Assembly: GCA_963843795.1 (NCBI GenBank)
Contig: CAWJLW010000006.1
Span: 3,236,375-3,300,374 of the forward strand
Length of the DNA stretch: 64,000 nucleotides
Reading direction: 5' to 3'
Source: an uncultured bacterium
Lineage (GTDB): Bacteria > Armatimonadota > Abditibacteriia > Abditibacteriales > Abditibacteriaceae
Made by a program: the position numbers. Shown here one piece after another: positions 39,001 to 45,000 of the stretch. Each line of letters opens with the position of its first letter. The first letter of the stretch is position 1.

Positions 39001-42000
39001 CCGGCGCGCTTTGCCACCGCAAATCGCTTTGGGTTTGAAGAAATGGCAGCGTTTCATCAGTCGAAGCGCCGTCTTGCACCACGATTTCCACATCCGCGAA
39101 ATTCTGCGCGCGAATTGAATCGAGCGTTAAACGCAGTTTGTCGCTGGCGTTGAAAGTCGGAATGATGATCGAGAAAAGTGGCATGGCGAAGATTGATTAA
39201 AACGGGCGCGCGTCGCGTTTCAACAAGCGCAGCACGATGTAAAGCCATTGCGCGGTGAAAATCGAAAACGGGAAACGCAGCGCGGCGATAGCAATTTGAC
39301 GCCGCACTTCGCGCCAATCGCTTTGGCCGATGGCGCGCCGCGCCTTTTGATAAGGCCGCACGCTTTTCAAGAAATACGCCTGTCCGACCACATTCCACAG
39401 CACGCGCGGGCGTTTCCACAACGCGGGCCAATGTTTAATCAAAGCGCGCTGTGATGCGCGCCACATCAGTTCTTCATCATTGGATTGGTTATCGTCGTGC
39501 CACGCGTAATCGAGCAACGTTTCGTTCAAAAACACGAACGGATAGCGGCGCGCCAAACGCAGCCAGCAATCCCAATCGTCCGAAGGTTGAGTGTGCGCAT
39601 CGAAACCACCAATAGCGCGCAATTTTTCGGTGCGGATCAGCGGCACGCTGGCCGAAAGCAAGACGTTTGTGGGAACGAAATCATCGAAAACCATTCCGCT
39701 GCGACCGCGCCAGAACGTTTGATCGAACAAGCGTTTACCAACCGCGCGCTCACTGCCATCGGCCTCGATTTCGCGCCACAAGCACCAGCACAAAGCCGCT
39801 TGCGGCGCGCTTTGCAGCGCGGCCAACTGGCGTTCCAATTTGGGCGGGTGCCAGATGTCATCGTGGTCTAAAAACGCCACGAATTCCCCATGCACTTCCT
39901 GCAAACCTCGATTGCGCGCACCCGCCACACCCGCGTTTTGCTGTCGAATCACGCGCAAATTTTCGCGGCGCGCATAGTGATTTTCTATCCAGCTCGCCGT
40001 GTCATCGGTCGAGCCATCATCGACGACGAGAATTTCCAGCGGCGCGTGGGTTTGTGCCAGCACGCTATCCAACGTGGGTGCAATGAGGCTATGACGATTG
40101 AAAGTCGTGACCACAACAGAAACGGAAGCGTTCATAAATCAAACTTCTTTCGCCGCAGCGCGATAAACACTCAGCGTTTGCTGTGCATGGCGTTCAACGG
40201 TGAATTCTGCGGCGCGTTCGCGGCCCAGATGCACCAAATTTTCGCGCCATGGTTCGTCGCACAGCACGTTTTCTAATCCGCGCGCGATAGATTCAATGCT
40301 TGAAGGCGCGACGTGTTGGGCCGCGCCGCCCGCGACTTCACTCATCGCGCCATATTCGCTGGTCAAAACCGCGCAACTGCACGCCATCGCTTCCAAAATT
40401 GGCAAACCGAAACCTTCATAGAAGCTTGGATAAGCAAACAGTTGTGCTTCGCTGTAAAGCGCGGGCAAATCTTCATCGGCGACGTAACCAGCCAAAACCA
40501 GATGCGACGCCGAGCCGGTATCGCGCGGCGTATCGCCCCAACCCTTTTTGCCGCAGATGACCAGTTTGTGCGGCATTTCGGGATATTTGGCTTTCCATTG
40601 CGCGAAGGCTCGCACCAAGTTTTCGACGTTTTTACGTGGCTGCTGCACGCCAACACTCAGCACAAACGGCCCATCAAGATAGTAACGCGCGCGCACTTTG
40701 GCGCGCTGTTCGGACGTTACCGGCTCGAAATACAGCGGGTCAATCGAATAATCGGTCACGGCAATTTTGGTTTCGGGCACCTGCAAGTACTTGCTCAAAT
40801 CATCGCGCGCCGACTGCGTGCCGCAAATCACCCGACGTGCGCGCCGCAATGTGCCCGGCATAAACAGGTTCATAATGGCGCGATGCAAACGCGGAAACGT
40901 ACTGGGCAAAGCGCGCCACACCACATCGTGAACCGTAGTCACGAACGGACGCGCTAAACGCGGCGCGAGATATTGTACATGTACCAAATCAGGCTGCGTT
41001 TGTTTCACGTAACGCGGCAGTTCCAACAGCGTCCAAGCGCGCGAATTGGGAGCGGGCAAAATCACCGGATGCAGATACTCGCACTGTGGCAAAACTTCGC
41101 GCTCGTCGGTGTTATCAAGCAATAAATCGAACTGCCATTGTTCGGGATCGAGATTGAGAGCATACAAACCGCGCAGCAAATTGAGAATATAAGTGCGGTC
41201 GCCGGTTTTGGGCGCGAGCGCGGTGCGGCAGTCGATGGCAATTCTCATAGAATATGCGCGGCAAGTACTTGCACAGCAAGCGAAAGCTACGCGCTGGCGA
41301 CGGCGCGTTTTTGACTTGCGCTTTTGCGTTGCGCGCGCTGTTTAGTTTCTTCAATCAGTTCAGGCGTCACCGATTTTTCAAAAGCGCGGAAGCCCGACAA
41401 ACCGAAGCCATGTTTGCGCGCCAACGCGCCGATATTTTCGACTTGCTCGACGCTCAGTTCGCGCCCCAACGTATAAGGTTGATAACTGCCTTCGAGCGCC
41501 ATGAGAATGGTTTCACTCATGCAAGCATACGCGGTGCGCGGAGGAAAACCGAAATCGAAGCCAAAGTCAACTGCGCCCGGCACGTCAATCACGCCGCCTT
41601 CGATAACAAGAACATCGTCGCGCTTTTCGATGACGCTTTTGGAAACGTCGCGCGGGCGCGCGACATCGCATACTACAGCGCCGATTTTCAAATCTTCGGG
41701 AAACACCAGTTCTTTGCCCGCCGCCGAAACGGCTAAGACTAAATCGGCATCGCGCAGGGCACGATTAATATCGGTCGCGACATCGACCAAAGCGCCTTTG
41801 GAAATCAGGTTCAATTCATCGCGCAGAGCGTTCAATTTCTCCGCATCGCGCCCGATGAGCGTAATCGCACCGACTTGAGGCGACAGAATTTTCGCGCAGA
41901 CGGCTCCGATTGAACCGGTCGCGCCGATAATCGCCACGCGCGCCTGCGAAACATCGACTTCCATCATTTGCGCAGCGCGTAGCAAACCTTCAACGGCAGT

Positions 42001-45000
42001 GTAAACCGTGTAAGAATTGCCGCTCGTCACGTTGATGATGCCTTCCAAACGTTTGGCGACCGAAATTCCGGCATCACCTGCGACAGATGTGAACGCGCCC
42101 AAACCAACGATTTTCGCTCCTAAATCGGCACCCAAGCGTCCGGTTTTGGCGATCACATCGTAGATAAATTCCAATGGTAAGCCGGTTTCACCGGTCAGTT
42201 GGCGCGGGCCGAGCGGACAGCCCAAAAGCCAGCCTTCGCACTGCGCGCCGGTTTTTGAAGTGATGCCCTTAATTTCGCCCATGACTTGCGGGCTAATTTT
42301 GGTCATCAGCCATTCGACAAAGCCTTGCGAGGTGTATTTGAGGACAGGAAACTTGCGCGCCGCATCGCGCTTCACGTCCATCGGATGAATGATAAATGCA
42401 AACTTTTCCATAGTTTTCGGCACACCGTTTCTAAACGCACCGCAAGTACTTGCAGCAAGTACTTGCCGACAGTTATTCACTTATTTAGTACTGAATTCAA
42501 TGATGCGCGGCTTCCAGTTTAATTGCTGCAACAAAGTTTGATACTCAGACGGCGTGCGCGCTCCTAGGGCTGCAAAAATTCCTTCCATCACATTAGTGCC
42601 GAAACTACGATTCTCGAACTCGGGCGTTGTCGTAATCAAGCGTCCCGCGCCACGTTCGCGCAACAATTCGACATCTTCTTTGGTGACCGTATTGGTCAGA
42701 ATGGTTTGGCCATTCAAACGGTCGGGCAAATACTGGCGAATCATCAGAAAGTCGCCTGCAATAATTTGGGCTTCGTCGTAGAATTTTTGATATTTGGGCG
42801 CGCTTTTAATTTGCTTTTGTTTTTCTCCGGTCGGATACAACATGGTGAAAGGCAGGCGACAGGCAAGCGGCAAAATGACGCGCGCCAACTTGCTGACCGC
42901 GCTCAGCTTGCGCAGCCGAATTGGGATTCCCAATACAAAAAGTAGATCGCCGAAAACTGTTTTCGCGCCCAGCCGCGCAATTTCTTCAGACAAACCAAAA
43001 CGATCAACCGCGCAGGTCACGAGAACGCGCGAAGTTTTGAAATCGACCAGGTTTTCGCGTTGCAAGTACTTCACGGTTTCGCGTTCAAGCGTGTCTTTTA
43101 AGCCGCTGCCATCAACCACGGGCGTAATTTTCGCGGCGCGTGCCAGCTTCAAAGCATCGCGCAAAACGTAACGCTGCGCGCCCGCAATGAGAAACAAATC
43201 AATGCCGCCCAAGCCAATCGCTGCGACGTGCCCGTCGAGTTCGGAAATGAGCTTTTGCGCGCGTCCCATATCGCCATCGACGCCACGTCGTTCGATAGAA
43301 AACTCCCGGCCCAGCAAATTGGCGCGCGCGCTGTGATCGCGCCCAGCCGAACCCAGAGAAACCGATACCACGCGTAGAATTGGGGAAGATTCAGCGCTTG
43401 ACTCGGGGGGCGAAGTTGTGGCAAACGGGGCGTTAAATGTTGCGAGCATGAGAGCAATTATAGCTTTATAGCGGCACTTGCAAGGAATTTTTCACGAAAA
43501 TCATGCTGCAAGTACTTGTAGCGGCGCGCAGGTTGCGTGACGCTGGCAACTGCATTTGGAGGTGCTTGTGCGCAGCACAGTTATTAAGGCAGTCGCTATA
43601 ATATTAGATAGGTTTTTTATTTTATGAGCAAATCGCCTCACCTTTCTCCACCGCCCGTAGGCGCATCGTCGGCAGGTGCGCCACCTGCTTTACGCGCGGT
43701 CGCGTCGCGCGGGGATACGCCACGGGGAGGCGCGCGCATCACGGCACAGGGGCGTTTGAACGCGTGGCGCGATGCGGTGGCGATGCGGTGGATCGCGGCT
43801 CAACAATACGAAAGCAAAAACGAAATTGCGGAATCGCGCGATGCTTTGGAAACGCGCGAAGCCGAACTGGTTGTCGCGATTTTTCGCACGCTGGTTTTAG
43901 TCGCGGTTCTCATCGGGCCACACGTTCTGGGTTTGCCGGTATCGTACGAACGCGGCGAAATCTGGCTGGCCGCCATCGCGGGTATTTACAACATCGTGAC
44001 CGCGTTGGGCTGTTTGCTGCCATCGCGCTACGGCTTGCGCCGCCCGTTCATTACCGCGATGGATTTGCTGCTGGTCACGCTGTGGATTCAGCTTTCGGGC
44101 CAGTGGGAACTGCGCACGTTTTATTATGTGATTGTTGTCGTCGCAGCGATGTGGTTTCGCGTGCTGGGCGGTATTGTCACGGCGACGTTTTGCAACTTTT
44201 TCTTCTTGTATTTGTGGTTCCGCATGGCTGGCGACCCGCAAATCGCCAATCCACCCACCTTCAATACGCCGCTCATTCTCAACACGGCGATGCTGTTTTT
44301 AGTCGGGGCTTTGGTCGGTTACATTGCCGAAGCGCAGGAACGCGAACGCGAACGCCGCCTGGAAGACCAGTTGTTAATTGCCAATTATCAGCGCGAAATT
44401 GATTTGTCGTCGCAATTGCAACCTTCGCTGGTCGCGCCGCAATTATTGAATCAAAACGAGCTGGGCACATCGGAAAACGATGCGTATCTCGATATTGGCG
44501 CCGCGATGCAAAGCGCACGCACCTTAGGCGGCGGCGATTTCTGCGACGTAATTCCGCTTGGCAACGGCCTAACCGGCATTTGCATCGCCGATGTTTCGGG
44601 AAAAAGCGTGCGGGCTCAGGCGCGGTTGCCTTTGTTGAAATACTCGTTGCGCGCCTTGGCTCCGCTGTATTCGCAGCCCGAAAAATTAGTGGCGCGCTTA
44701 AACCAAACTCTCGCGCCCGATTTACAGCCCGAACTTTATATTGCGTTTTGCTACATCGTTCTCGACCCGAAAAAGCGCACGCTGAGTTGGTGCAACGCGG
44801 GTCACATCGCGCCGCTGTTGCTATCTGCCAGAGATGAAAACAAAACCACGTTGCTAAAAACGCACGGCCCGGCGCTGGGCATGTTTGGCGAGGCCGAATA
44901 CGCGCACGGCACGCACGAATGGCAGCCCACTGATTGTCTGCTACTCTACACCGATGGACTGACCGATGCTTTTTCGTATCGTGGCAGCGAAGACGGCGAA

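Follow-up and report, generated by a model that had tools for sequence, protein, structure and literature searches.

A conserved reductase, aminotransferase and orphan gene module as a candidate pathway to alkylamine phospholipids in Armatimonadota and related lineages

A gene of no known family lies beside an acyl-thioester reductase gene in the genome of an uncultured Abditibacteriaceae bacterium, within a window of 64,000 nucleotides (contig CAWJLW010000006.1, positions 3,236,375 to 3,300,374). On balance we favour the view that these two genes, together with an aminotransferase and a START protein, form a four-part housekeeping module which builds N-glyceroyl-alkylamine phospholipids, predicted to be principal lipids of the membrane in bacteria without PgsA. 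Judged from homology, the conversion of acyl-ACP to aldehyde and then to alkylamine by the putative reductase and aminotransferase is well supported, and use of the alkylamine in N-glyceroyl-alkylamine phospholipids is likely. The positions of the four genes are listed in Table 1.

Table 1. Positions of the genes assigned to the module
Gene	Position	Strand	Remarks
Acyl-thioester reductase g02979	41287-42411	-	374 aa from ATG 42411 (MEKFAF); PigE-N/TamH-TR/AAR type
Orphan g02980	42481-43449	-	ORF of 322 aa; the conserved core starts at about residue 24
Aminotransferase g03125	C6:3459545-3460846 (contig positions)	-	outside the window, about 179 kb from g02979
START protein	C6:3459036-3459518 (contig positions)	-	outside the window, about 179 kb from g02979

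The longest possible start of g02979 is a GTG at 42480 (397 aa), and conservation begins only at the ATG of Table 1. Its best match was the N-terminal half of PigE (207.9 bits, E 2.9e-61; residues 3-367 against model positions 1-364), and PDB entry 4ppm was matched at E 1.5e-34, so homology to the PigE/TamH-type thioester reductase domain covers the full length. The AAR model TIGR04058 gave 115.2 bits, far under its cut-off of 449.7, which places g02979 outside that family. Cys297 of g02979 aligned with Cys294 of AAR (aligned residues 11-337), a GATGSIG motif occupies residues 163-169, and G163, A164, G166, G169 and C297 were invariant in 57 aligned rows. A reductase of this type was found in 96 of 101 Armatimonadota genomes at E<=1e-15, and of 80 named loci, 54 held an AAR-like gene, strong in 49 and decayed in 5. 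These results agree with a preliminary description of the locus, which had named PigE and AAR as best matches, had found Cys297 and GATG invariant, and had counted the reductase in 27 of 31 genomes of the phylum (E<1e-60) and close to the orphan in 55 of 80 loci. Among 14 control genomes, the AAR model matched four, those of T. thermophilus, D. radiodurans, S. elongatus and M. jannaschii.

The aminotransferase g03125, reported earlier in 31 of 31 genomes, was detected in 96 of 101 Armatimonadota genomes at E<=1e-95. PatA was its best HMM, with 458 bits under the cut-off of 612 (NF008570), and TIGR03372 gave 393 against a cut-off of 659; assignment as a PatA equivalog was rejected on both. The best PDB match was also PatA (E 3e-108), and the score on the PigE model was 430. 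Of 20 Vulcanimicrobiota-type loci, 18 have the aminotransferase, START, reductase and orphan genes in this order on the same strand, in most cases flanked by dusB and greA-lysS, and the remaining two loci are cut by contig ends. Because of this clustering we assign the aminotransferase to the module, and the former worry that g03125 is unlinked was removed. The START gene was next to the aminotransferase in just 6 of 13 Armatimonadota loci. Among PDB entries the START protein best matches TTHA0849 from T. thermophilus (E 9.5e-24), whose pocket is given as about 18 cubic angstroms (PMC13525633); this size and the 6 of 13 loci count against the proposal.

Orphan and reductase were found fused in both orders, seven as orphan-AAR in one clade and four as AAR-orphan, and the reductase Cys was kept in eight of nine such fusions checked. 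Among 50 other orphan-bearing genomes, 24 had no intact reductase adjoining the orphan, and 19 of the 24 held one elsewhere: 10 as transaminase-reductase fusions (read directly), 2 as probable fusions, 2 as adjacent AT and AAR genes, 4 as stand-alone genes and 1 through a LuxE-LuxC-AT operon only. Such a transaminase-reductase fusion was present in none of the 26 genomes with an intact reductase beside the orphan. All nine full-length transaminase-reductase fusions checked retain the Cys and GxxGxxG. The class III transaminase that is fused in 10 other genomes is a separate, distant gene in this genome (Table 1). TamH, which has the same transaminase-reductase architecture, converts C12-ACP to C12 amine (PMC9594044). 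LuxC had been predicted beforehand for family f8, which consists of one genus, and was present in all four genomes sampled, where the AAR-like gene was absent; it also occurred in 34 of 151 genomes of the phylum, including families with an intact AAR. Neither gene was found in 5 of the 50 carriers, MAGs of 1.8-2.3 Mb whose completeness was not given. The spread of LuxC and these five carriers tell against the proposal. An AAR-like domain was fused to PlsY in three families (f2, f5 and f33; 5 of 5 read), and this fusion was the sole PlsY in the three genomes checked.

The head-group genes were also surveyed. A search for PF01066 (the PgsA family) gave no match in 130 of the 151 genomes of Armatimonadota, in any of 14 genomes of the bacterium's own family, in 17 of 20 Vulcanimicrobiota-type genomes, or in Coprothermobacter; D. 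radiodurans was the only one of 14 controls in which it was not found. This genome (92% complete) likewise gave no PF01066 match and contains CdsA and PlsY; it resembles D. radiodurans in having the CDP-diacylglycerol route but no canonical transferase for the head group. No recognised CDP-diacylglycerol consumer was found in it, and its PLD matches resemble Ppk and a single-domain PLD. A PF01066 gene was kept in 42 of 50 carriers outside Armatimonadota and Vulcanimicrobiota, which counts against the proposal.

The orphan g02980 matched no Pfam family at E<=0.1 and in NCBIfam only gave two noise GroEL matches (E 0.015 and 0.08), so that the earlier statement of a 322-aa protein without a family was confirmed. 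Across 104 homologues each Pfam family matched at most one member, and a PDB sequence search with g02980 returned nothing below E 0.79. Described before as near-universal in Armatimonadota, it had a homologue in 150 of 151 genomes at least 80% complete, mostly in single copy, with 41-66% identity among the matches listed; 60 of 61 Vulcanimicrobiota genomes and every one of 21 genomes from the Thermoanaerobacter family carried it as well. For the 41 of 41 Deinococcota and 26 of 26 Neomoorella-class genomes counted in the preliminary description, the support obtained here was indirect. All counts in this work include related genomes, so the members are not independent. Many polar residues of the orphan are near-invariant, including S31, R54, D113, K118, E122, R150, D168, D233 and N286. 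No conserved Cys was found, with Cys in no column above 25 of 104 rows, and the GxxGxxG or GxGxxG dinucleotide loop was absent from the consensus. After the strand at 141-144 comes (S/C)AxDR, and its equivalence to the AAR loop is suggested by secondary structure rather than by residue-level superposition. One orphan (P0150, 4 members) was fused to an AONS/SPT-like domain.

The structure model of the orphan (pLDDT 94.2) has a two-domain fold of the AAR/TAD/amino-acid-dehydrogenase type. In a search of 48,161 chains the top matches were AAR 6jzq (Z 12.6, rmsd 4.8, 239 aa, 9% identity) and the CarI terminal amidation domain (TAD) 9e4s (Z 12.1, rmsd 5.1, 251 aa), the same two as in the preliminary description; however, the margin was smaller than claimed, with glutamate dehydrogenase third at Z 10.3 and a Foldseek order of FolD first, TAD second to seventh and AAR 50th. 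The AAR-like fold is weakly specific, and hhalign gave no profile homology between the orphan and the AAR-like family (probability 0.3%). The TAD (PDB 9E4S) has an invariant Cys and a GxGxxG motif and mostly terminates NRPS modules, and its release activity was not detected in vitro (bioRxiv 2024.10.28.620694). The fold of the orphan is no argument for amide formation, because the likeness to AAR and TAD is one of fold only and amidation by TAD has never been shown in vitro. The earlier interpretation was supported in part. Its route through the reductase and aminotransferase to a long-chain amine linked to membrane lipids gained support beyond what had first been given, from the four-gene cluster, the TamH-type fusions, the LuxE-LuxC-AT operon, the PlsY fusions and the phylum-wide lack of PF01066.

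In the proposed pathway, g02979, judged by homology and its motifs, would accept the acyl group of acyl-ACP at Cys297 and free the aldehyde with NAD(P)H. The PLP enzyme g03125 would then convert the aldehyde to the amine, as homology and gene linkage suggest by analogy with TamH and TabE/TabA, while the START protein might carry the aldehyde or the amine. Given the pathway, there is about an even chance that the orphan acts after amine formation, as a separate enzyme at the membrane surface. Its most likely reaction would be formation of an amide from the amine and a phosphorylated glycerate donor, e.g. 1,3-bisphosphoglycerate; our second choice would be the transfer of a phosphatidyl group from CDP-diacylglycerol. 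CdsA would give CDP-diacylglycerol, and a glycosyltransferase would attach the sugar. More tentatively, the orphan might found a new enzyme class that links an alkylamine to glycerate and a phosphatidyl unit by chemistry other than that of the PgsA family, and three-tailed alkylamine phospholipids might stand in for phosphatidylglycerol in Armatimonadota, Vulcanimicrobiota, Deinococcota, Coprothermobacter and part of Bacillota, which would amount to a widespread alternative route to phospholipids in bacteria.

Huang and Anderson reportedly identified fatty acids as the source of the amine in 1992. T. thermophilus has three main lipids, of which the alkylamine lipid is one, its enzymes were described as unidentified in 2022, and the structure of the N-glyceroyl-alkylamine phosphoglycolipid and its precursor phosphatidyl-glyceric alkylamine have been given (PMC9636437). 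N-glyceroyl alkylamines are listed for M. thermoacetica and unlisted for T. wiegelii and C. subterraneus in Table 1 of PMC13274423, a soft absence because that column covers diabolic-acid-related compounds only. The orphan occurs in all 21 genomes of the Thermoanaerobacter family, for which alkylamine lipids are not reported, and this caveat of the preliminary description stands. Candidates in T. thermophilus are TTHA1126 and TTHA0909, matched by annotation, and TTHA0849 (START), matched by sequence; the Deinococcus genes were also matched by annotation. TT_C0761 (COG5322), a neighbour of efp-accB-accC, is present as a single copy in 341 isolates of Deinococcota, and insertion z values in T. 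thermophilus were -0.49 for TT_C0761, -0.70 for 'patA', -0.60 for START and +1.33 for the only CDP-alcohol phosphatidyltransferase (PMC13140390 Table S3). The value for plsX was +1.23, and the authors state that their data cannot call essentiality (PMC13140390). In Deinococcus, a family 'annotated as quinate 5-dehydrogenase' (deino9.00587) is present in 33 of 33 genomes with low variability and is listed as probably important, and Table 3 of PMC9425974 proposes neither function nor gene context for it. By its name, which it shares with the orphan, it is probably the orphan's family; deino9.00587 was not found in the supplements searched. PG, PE and cardiolipin were not identified in V. alpinus, and its description names no phosphoglycolipid (PMC9758169). 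The literature found gives no lipid structure for any Armatimonadota or Vulcanimicrobiota, which counts against the proposal, and no lipid data were found for this organism; the proposed product is known from Thermus, Deinococcus and Moorella and is predicted in these two phyla.

Other readings of the same genes were weighed. The alkylamine could be made for another product, for example some other anchor in the envelope or an alkaloid that is secreted, instead of a phosphoglycolipid. The enzymes PigE, TamH, TabE/TabA and those of koreenceine are natural-product enzymes, and the characterised reductase-transaminases found in the literature all serve secondary metabolism (PMC9594044, PMC10829540), which we count against our proposal; Bacillota TAm-AAR fusions were pointed to alkaloid clusters by their authors (PMC10829540), and Thermoanaerobacteraceae with the orphan are reported with PG-type lipids. 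We nevertheless regard this as unlikely, given the single-copy core distribution over two phyla, the dusB-greA-lysS context, the fusion of the reductase to the sole PlsY and the lack of a recognised CDP-diacylglycerol consumer in this genome. Similarly improbable is a correct pathway in which the orphan is only a docking or aldehyde-channelling subunit of the reductase. Fusion in both orders, adjacency to the reductase in 49 of 80 loci and a shared overall fold without Cys or GxxGxxG fit such a non-catalytic partner, but the orphan is still 47-54% identical where the Cys is missing from the adjoining reductase (L090, L096, L113, L115, L117 and L120), is kept where LuxC takes the place of an absent reductase (f8, G178), and has many near-invariant polar residues.

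The aldehyde might instead enter ether, alcohol or diol lipids, with g03125 an ordinary putrescine aminotransferase. Acyltransferase-reductase enzymes of ether-lipid synthesis resemble the PlsY-reductase fusions, long-chain diols are found in Thermus, and the PatA matches of g03125 and the AONS/SPT-like fusion of P0150 point the same way. The scores of g03125 below both PatA cut-offs, its score on PigE, the clustering of its orthologue with the reductase, and the existence of aminotransferase relatives that are joined to a reductase domain or placed behind LuxE-LuxC make this distinctly unlikely. That the orphan is a quinate or shikimate dehydrogenase is scarcely credible. Its automatic cluster name in the Atlas (nearest clusters) is quinate 5-dehydrogenase, and its fold matches shikimate dehydrogenases at Z 8.6-9.2; however, PF01488 was found in 0 of 104 orphan members, the dinucleotide motif is absent, and no aro gene appeared in the list of conserved neighbour clusters for 100 loci. 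The PF01488 match of the neighbouring gene is the probable source of the label.

If the preferred reading of a phospholipid-building module is right, it would explain how two phyla with few cultured members can do without genes of the PgsA family. As of 2022, no enzymes were known for the head group or the third chain of a main phospholipid of Thermus and Deinococcus (PMC9636437); the module offers candidates, and it suggests what a family listed as probably important in Deinococcus may do. Candidates are available in the genetically tractable T. thermophilus, and the four-gene cluster is compact enough for expression in E. coli. The lipid would be a predicted biomarker of anaerobic lineages and of those from soil and hot springs.

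The proposal would also suggest a primary-membrane counterpart of the reductase-transaminase chemistry of tambjamine and prodigiosin. As in TamH of P. tunicata and PigE of Serratia, an AAR-type reductase with Cys and GxxGxxG would act together with a PatA-like omega-transaminase, and the Bacillota fusions follow the TamH order, TA then TR. TabE and TabA of S. albus share the logic of a reductase with a class III transaminase, although TabE is not AAR-like. In cyanobacterial AAR (TIGR04058) the Cys aligns with that of g02979, whereas g02979 scores far below the cut-off, and its counterparts in Vulcanimicrobiota-type loci are linked to a transaminase. AAR (6JZQ) is the top fold match of the orphan, which lacks the Cys and detectable sequence homology; the CarI TAD is alike in fold, but its Cys, GxGxxG and position at the end of NRPS modules are all missing in the orphan. 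The conserved neighbours of the module include neither pyrrole nor PKS genes, nor a gene for a dedicated ACP. Unlike TamH, TabE and PigE, the module consists of single-copy core genes in a housekeeping context, with the orphan and START as partners and an occasional fusion to PlsY.

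The preliminary description had an orphan protein (g02980) beside a reductase (g02979) resembling acyl-ACP reductase (AAR). Profile searches of the orphan gave no Pfam family and only noise in NCBIfam, so its description as a protein without a family was borne out. Neither its single sequence nor a 104-row profile found a relative among PDB sequences. The orphan was present in 150 of 151 Armatimonadota genomes, which confirmed its claimed near-universality in this phylum, and in 60/61 genomes of Vulcanimicrobiota (the phylum of L092, one of the compared loci). A strict pattern scan gave an estimate of ~3,800 orphan-bearing stretches in GTDB. 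The best 80 of these loci also included Coprothermobacter and many thermophilic, halophilic and syntrophic Bacillota; no Deinococcota or Moorellia were named among these 80. The plasmid search gave no match, no viral homologues were found, and an Atlas search by named cluster returned no result. A tree built from 221 domains, each of 240-360 aa, agreed with an Armatimonadota placement of the near homologues from Abditibacteriaceae, a family that we take to belong to this phylum.

The reductase matched the N-terminal half of PigE and AAR, and contains Cys297 and GATGSIG. It was found in 96/101 Armatimonadota genomes, and the same count was obtained for the aminotransferase at C6:3459545, which is directly followed by a START/cyclase gene in the genome under study. 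Two of the conservation alignments covered 57 paired loci, all chosen for an intact reductase, and invariance within them is conditional on that choice.

Positions of the features discussed (numbers without prefix are window positions; C6 is the contig, L-numbers are compared loci)
Feature	Position	Strand	Remark
Orphan ORF, 322 aa	42481-43449	minus	ORF reading
Reductase ORF, 374 aa from ATG 42411	41287-42411	minus	69 bases downstream of orphan
GT4, GT2, GT2 glycosyltransferases	38432-41248	minus, same as pair	downstream of pair
HAD phosphatase gene, genome under study (G000)	C6:3458316-3459039	minus	directly after aminotransferase and START, split by frameshift
HTH protein gene, examples	L047:5790-6338, L050:9460-9993		35 more loci
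Palindrome GCAAGTACTTGC	41261, 42442, 42455		37 other places in window

Several genes were considered for further steps and set aside. Of the three glycosyltransferases in the window, considered for the sugar step, the GT4 is not a conserved neighbour in other genomes: no gene near the pair in the fetched loci matched it at E<=1e-25, and where a GT4 gene adjoins the aminotransferase and START elsewhere, it matches other paralogues at ~30%. The HAD gene was dropped as a phosphatase step, being frameshifted here and not found beside the aminotransferase in 13 other loci. A second PlsY as the amide-forming enzyme was ruled out by a single PlsY in 5/5 genomes. The genes upstream of the pair (43624-51646) look ordinary: first that of a SpoIIE-type phosphatase, the one covered by the profile scan, followed by those of a response-regulator diguanylate cyclase and of CheB, CheA and MCP-like proteins. 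The palindrome GCAAGTACTTGC has 2,567 copies genome-wide versus 0.25 expected from base composition; its 40 copies in the window lie within and between genes, and it resembles a HIP1-type highly iterated palindrome.

The AlphaFold2 model of the orphan (pLDDT 94.2) was compared with 48,161 chains. The best match was AAR (Z 12.6, rmsd 4.8, 239 aa) and the second was the carmabin terminal amidation domain (TAD; Z 12.1, rmsd 5.1, 251 aa), followed by glutamate dehydrogenase (Z 10.3) and shikimate dehydrogenase (9.2). The earlier statement that AAR and TAD are the top two chains thus held in this comparison but not in Foldseek, which placed FolD first, TAD next and AAR 50th. Profile homology between the orphan and the neighbouring reductase family was not detected. 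The orphan has no GxGxxG and, in the 104-row alignment, no conserved Cys. Fourteen polar residues, S31, R37, R54, D72, D113, K118, E122, D149, R150, D168, Y205, D233, R281 and N286, were each kept in 91-104 of the 104 rows, and helix 182-196 was on average hydrophobic, amphipathic and basic. We infer from these features an enzyme without redox function whose phosphorylated substrates are bound at a membrane surface. The likeness to TAD was dropped as support for amidation, because the release activity of TAD was not detected in the available part of the preprint (bioRxiv 2024.10.28.620694).

The aminotransferase had been described as unlinked, an objection removed by the gene order in other genomes. 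In 18/20 Vulcanimicrobiota-type loci (3 of the 20 bear other NCBI labels and were grouped by tree), the aminotransferase, START, reductase and orphan genes follow in this order on one strand, mostly flanked by dusB and greA-lysS; contig ends truncate the remaining two loci. Among 50 orphan-bearing genomes, START adjoined the aminotransferase in all of the best 10 aminotransferase matches. The orphan and reductase adjoin in 11/20 diverse Armatimonadota loci, and START follows the aminotransferase in 6/13. Orphan and reductase are also found as fusion proteins with either partner first, 7 of them from a single clade and 4 from Vulcanimicrobiota.

The Bacillota loci have an HTH gene together with orphan and reductase at one and the same chromosomal site. 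The HTH protein (~180 aa; its HTH is N-terminal, and its C-terminal domain has no name) is encoded directly upstream of the orphan in 37/80 loci, mostly Bacillota, and was not found in the genome under study; it is a candidate regulator of the module. At L089:4224-9352, genes named by eye as fabH-, fabK-, fabD-, fabG- and fabF-like lie directly upstream of the HTH, orphan and reductase genes. At L059, L065 and L077, which are related, the gene immediately after the orphan encodes a ~168-aa hydrophobic protein with no Pfam match. In all 4 genomes of Armatimonadota family f8 (L211-L214) the aminotransferase and START genes are immediately preceded by that of an unnamed ~377-aa protein, likewise with no Pfam match. 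P0150 (762 aa; its cluster has 4 members) is a fusion with the orphan placed after a PLP domain like AONS/serine palmitoyltransferase; there the orphan may act on a sphingoid-type long-chain amine.

The product of the module is probably a membrane lipid. In three Armatimonadota families (f2, f5, f33) an AAR-like domain with its Cys retained is fused to PlsY (5/5 read), and in the 3 genomes checked this fusion is the sole PlsY. The genome under study has PlsY and CdsA; a CDP-alcohol phosphatidyltransferase was not found in it, and its PLD-type genes resemble polyphosphate kinase and a single-domain PLD. By profile search PF01066, the PgsA family, was not found in 130/151 Armatimonadota genomes and 17/20 Vulcanimicrobiota-type genomes (the other 3 gave weak matches). 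It was also not found in Coprothermobacter, nor in D. radiodurans, the sole such case among 14 controls; the AAR model matched both Deinococcota controls. In T. thermophilus, one of whose main lipids is an alkylamine phosphoglycolipid with unidentified enzymes according to PMC9636437, the tables of PMC13140390 list a COG5322 gene next to accB-accC that occurs as a single copy in 341 Deinococcota isolates. Insertions were few in this gene (z -0.49), 'patA' (-0.70) and the START gene (-0.60), and many in the sole PgsA-family gene (z +1.33), in data that by the authors' own warning cannot call essentiality; the orphan's orthologue was not located in Table S3. A family labelled 'quinate 5-dehydrogenase', equated with the orphan family by its label, occurs in 33/33 Deinococcus genomes and is flagged as likely important (PMC9425974). 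M. thermoacetica has compounds related to the alkylamine phosphoglycolipid (PMC13274423). For V. alpinus, the part of PMC9758169 considered leaves every lipid unidentified and names neither PG, PE or cardiolipin nor a phosphoglycolipid.

Other observations count against this lipid. The orphan is present in 21/21 genomes of the Thermoanaerobacter family, and Table 1 of PMC13274423 does not list alkylamine lipids for two tested species of that family. PF01066 is retained in 42/50 orphan carriers, mostly Bacillota. The crystal structure of the START protein shows a tiny pocket (PMC13525633), and the characterised homologues in the literature considered are all natural-product enzymes.

In the proposed pathway, which draws on catalytic motifs, gene linkage, fusions and the missing PgsA, the reductase and then the aminotransferase would convert acyl-ACP through aldehyde to alkylamine, and we regard this route as very likely. 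The alkylamine would then enter phosphatidylglyceroyl-alkylamine, a step that we regard as likely. The orphan would form the amide with phosphorylated glycerate, or else carry out phosphatidyl transfer; given the pathway, the chance that it does one of the two is slightly better than even. The pathway also calls for one further condensation enzyme and a glycosyltransferase. The module possibly includes a new enzyme class. Both the lipid itself and the chemistry of steps one and two are already known. A literature search with thin coverage of subscription journals found no gene assignment for the alkylamine lipid, nor any published account that connects this chemistry with the lipid or describes the cluster, the fusion to PlsY, the reductase substitutions or the link to PgsA loss.

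Whether the orphan is a structural subunit of the reductase or acts in a step of its own was judged from genomes where the reductase is replaced. The survey covered 50 of the 80 loci, outside Armatimonadota and Vulcanimicrobiota-type genomes and without L045 and L119. No intact reductase adjoined the orphan in 24/50; 6 of these carry a decayed copy without Cys. These AAR-like genes, at L113, L115, L117, L120, L096 and L090, lack both the Cys and the nucleotide motif but still read as full ORFs beside the orphan, and are possible pseudo-enzymes. The reductase lay elsewhere in the genome in 19 of the 24: as transaminase-reductase fusions (10 read directly, 2 probable), adjacent aminotransferase and AAR pairs (2), stand-alone genes (4) or a LuxE-LuxC-aminotransferase operon only (1). 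A second such operon occurs in a genome that has AAR too. In the other 5, neither an AAR-like reductase nor a LuxC substitute was found, and the fusion was found in 0/26 genomes with an intact reductase beside the orphan. The four genomes of family f8 all lack the AAR-like gene and have LuxC, a result that is only supportive, since LuxC occurs in 34/151 Armatimonadota genomes. Three unrelated arrangements therefore pair thioester reduction with transamination while the orphan is kept, and this makes a downstream step of its own more probable than a role as structural subunit. PMC10829540 gives aliphatic aldehydes as substrates of Bacillota transaminase-reductase fusions. The fusions found here are alike in domain order and motifs to TamH, which converts C12-ACP to the C12 amine (PMC9594044), a conversion that TabE and TabA carry out as separate proteins (bioRxiv 2025.08.11.669332).
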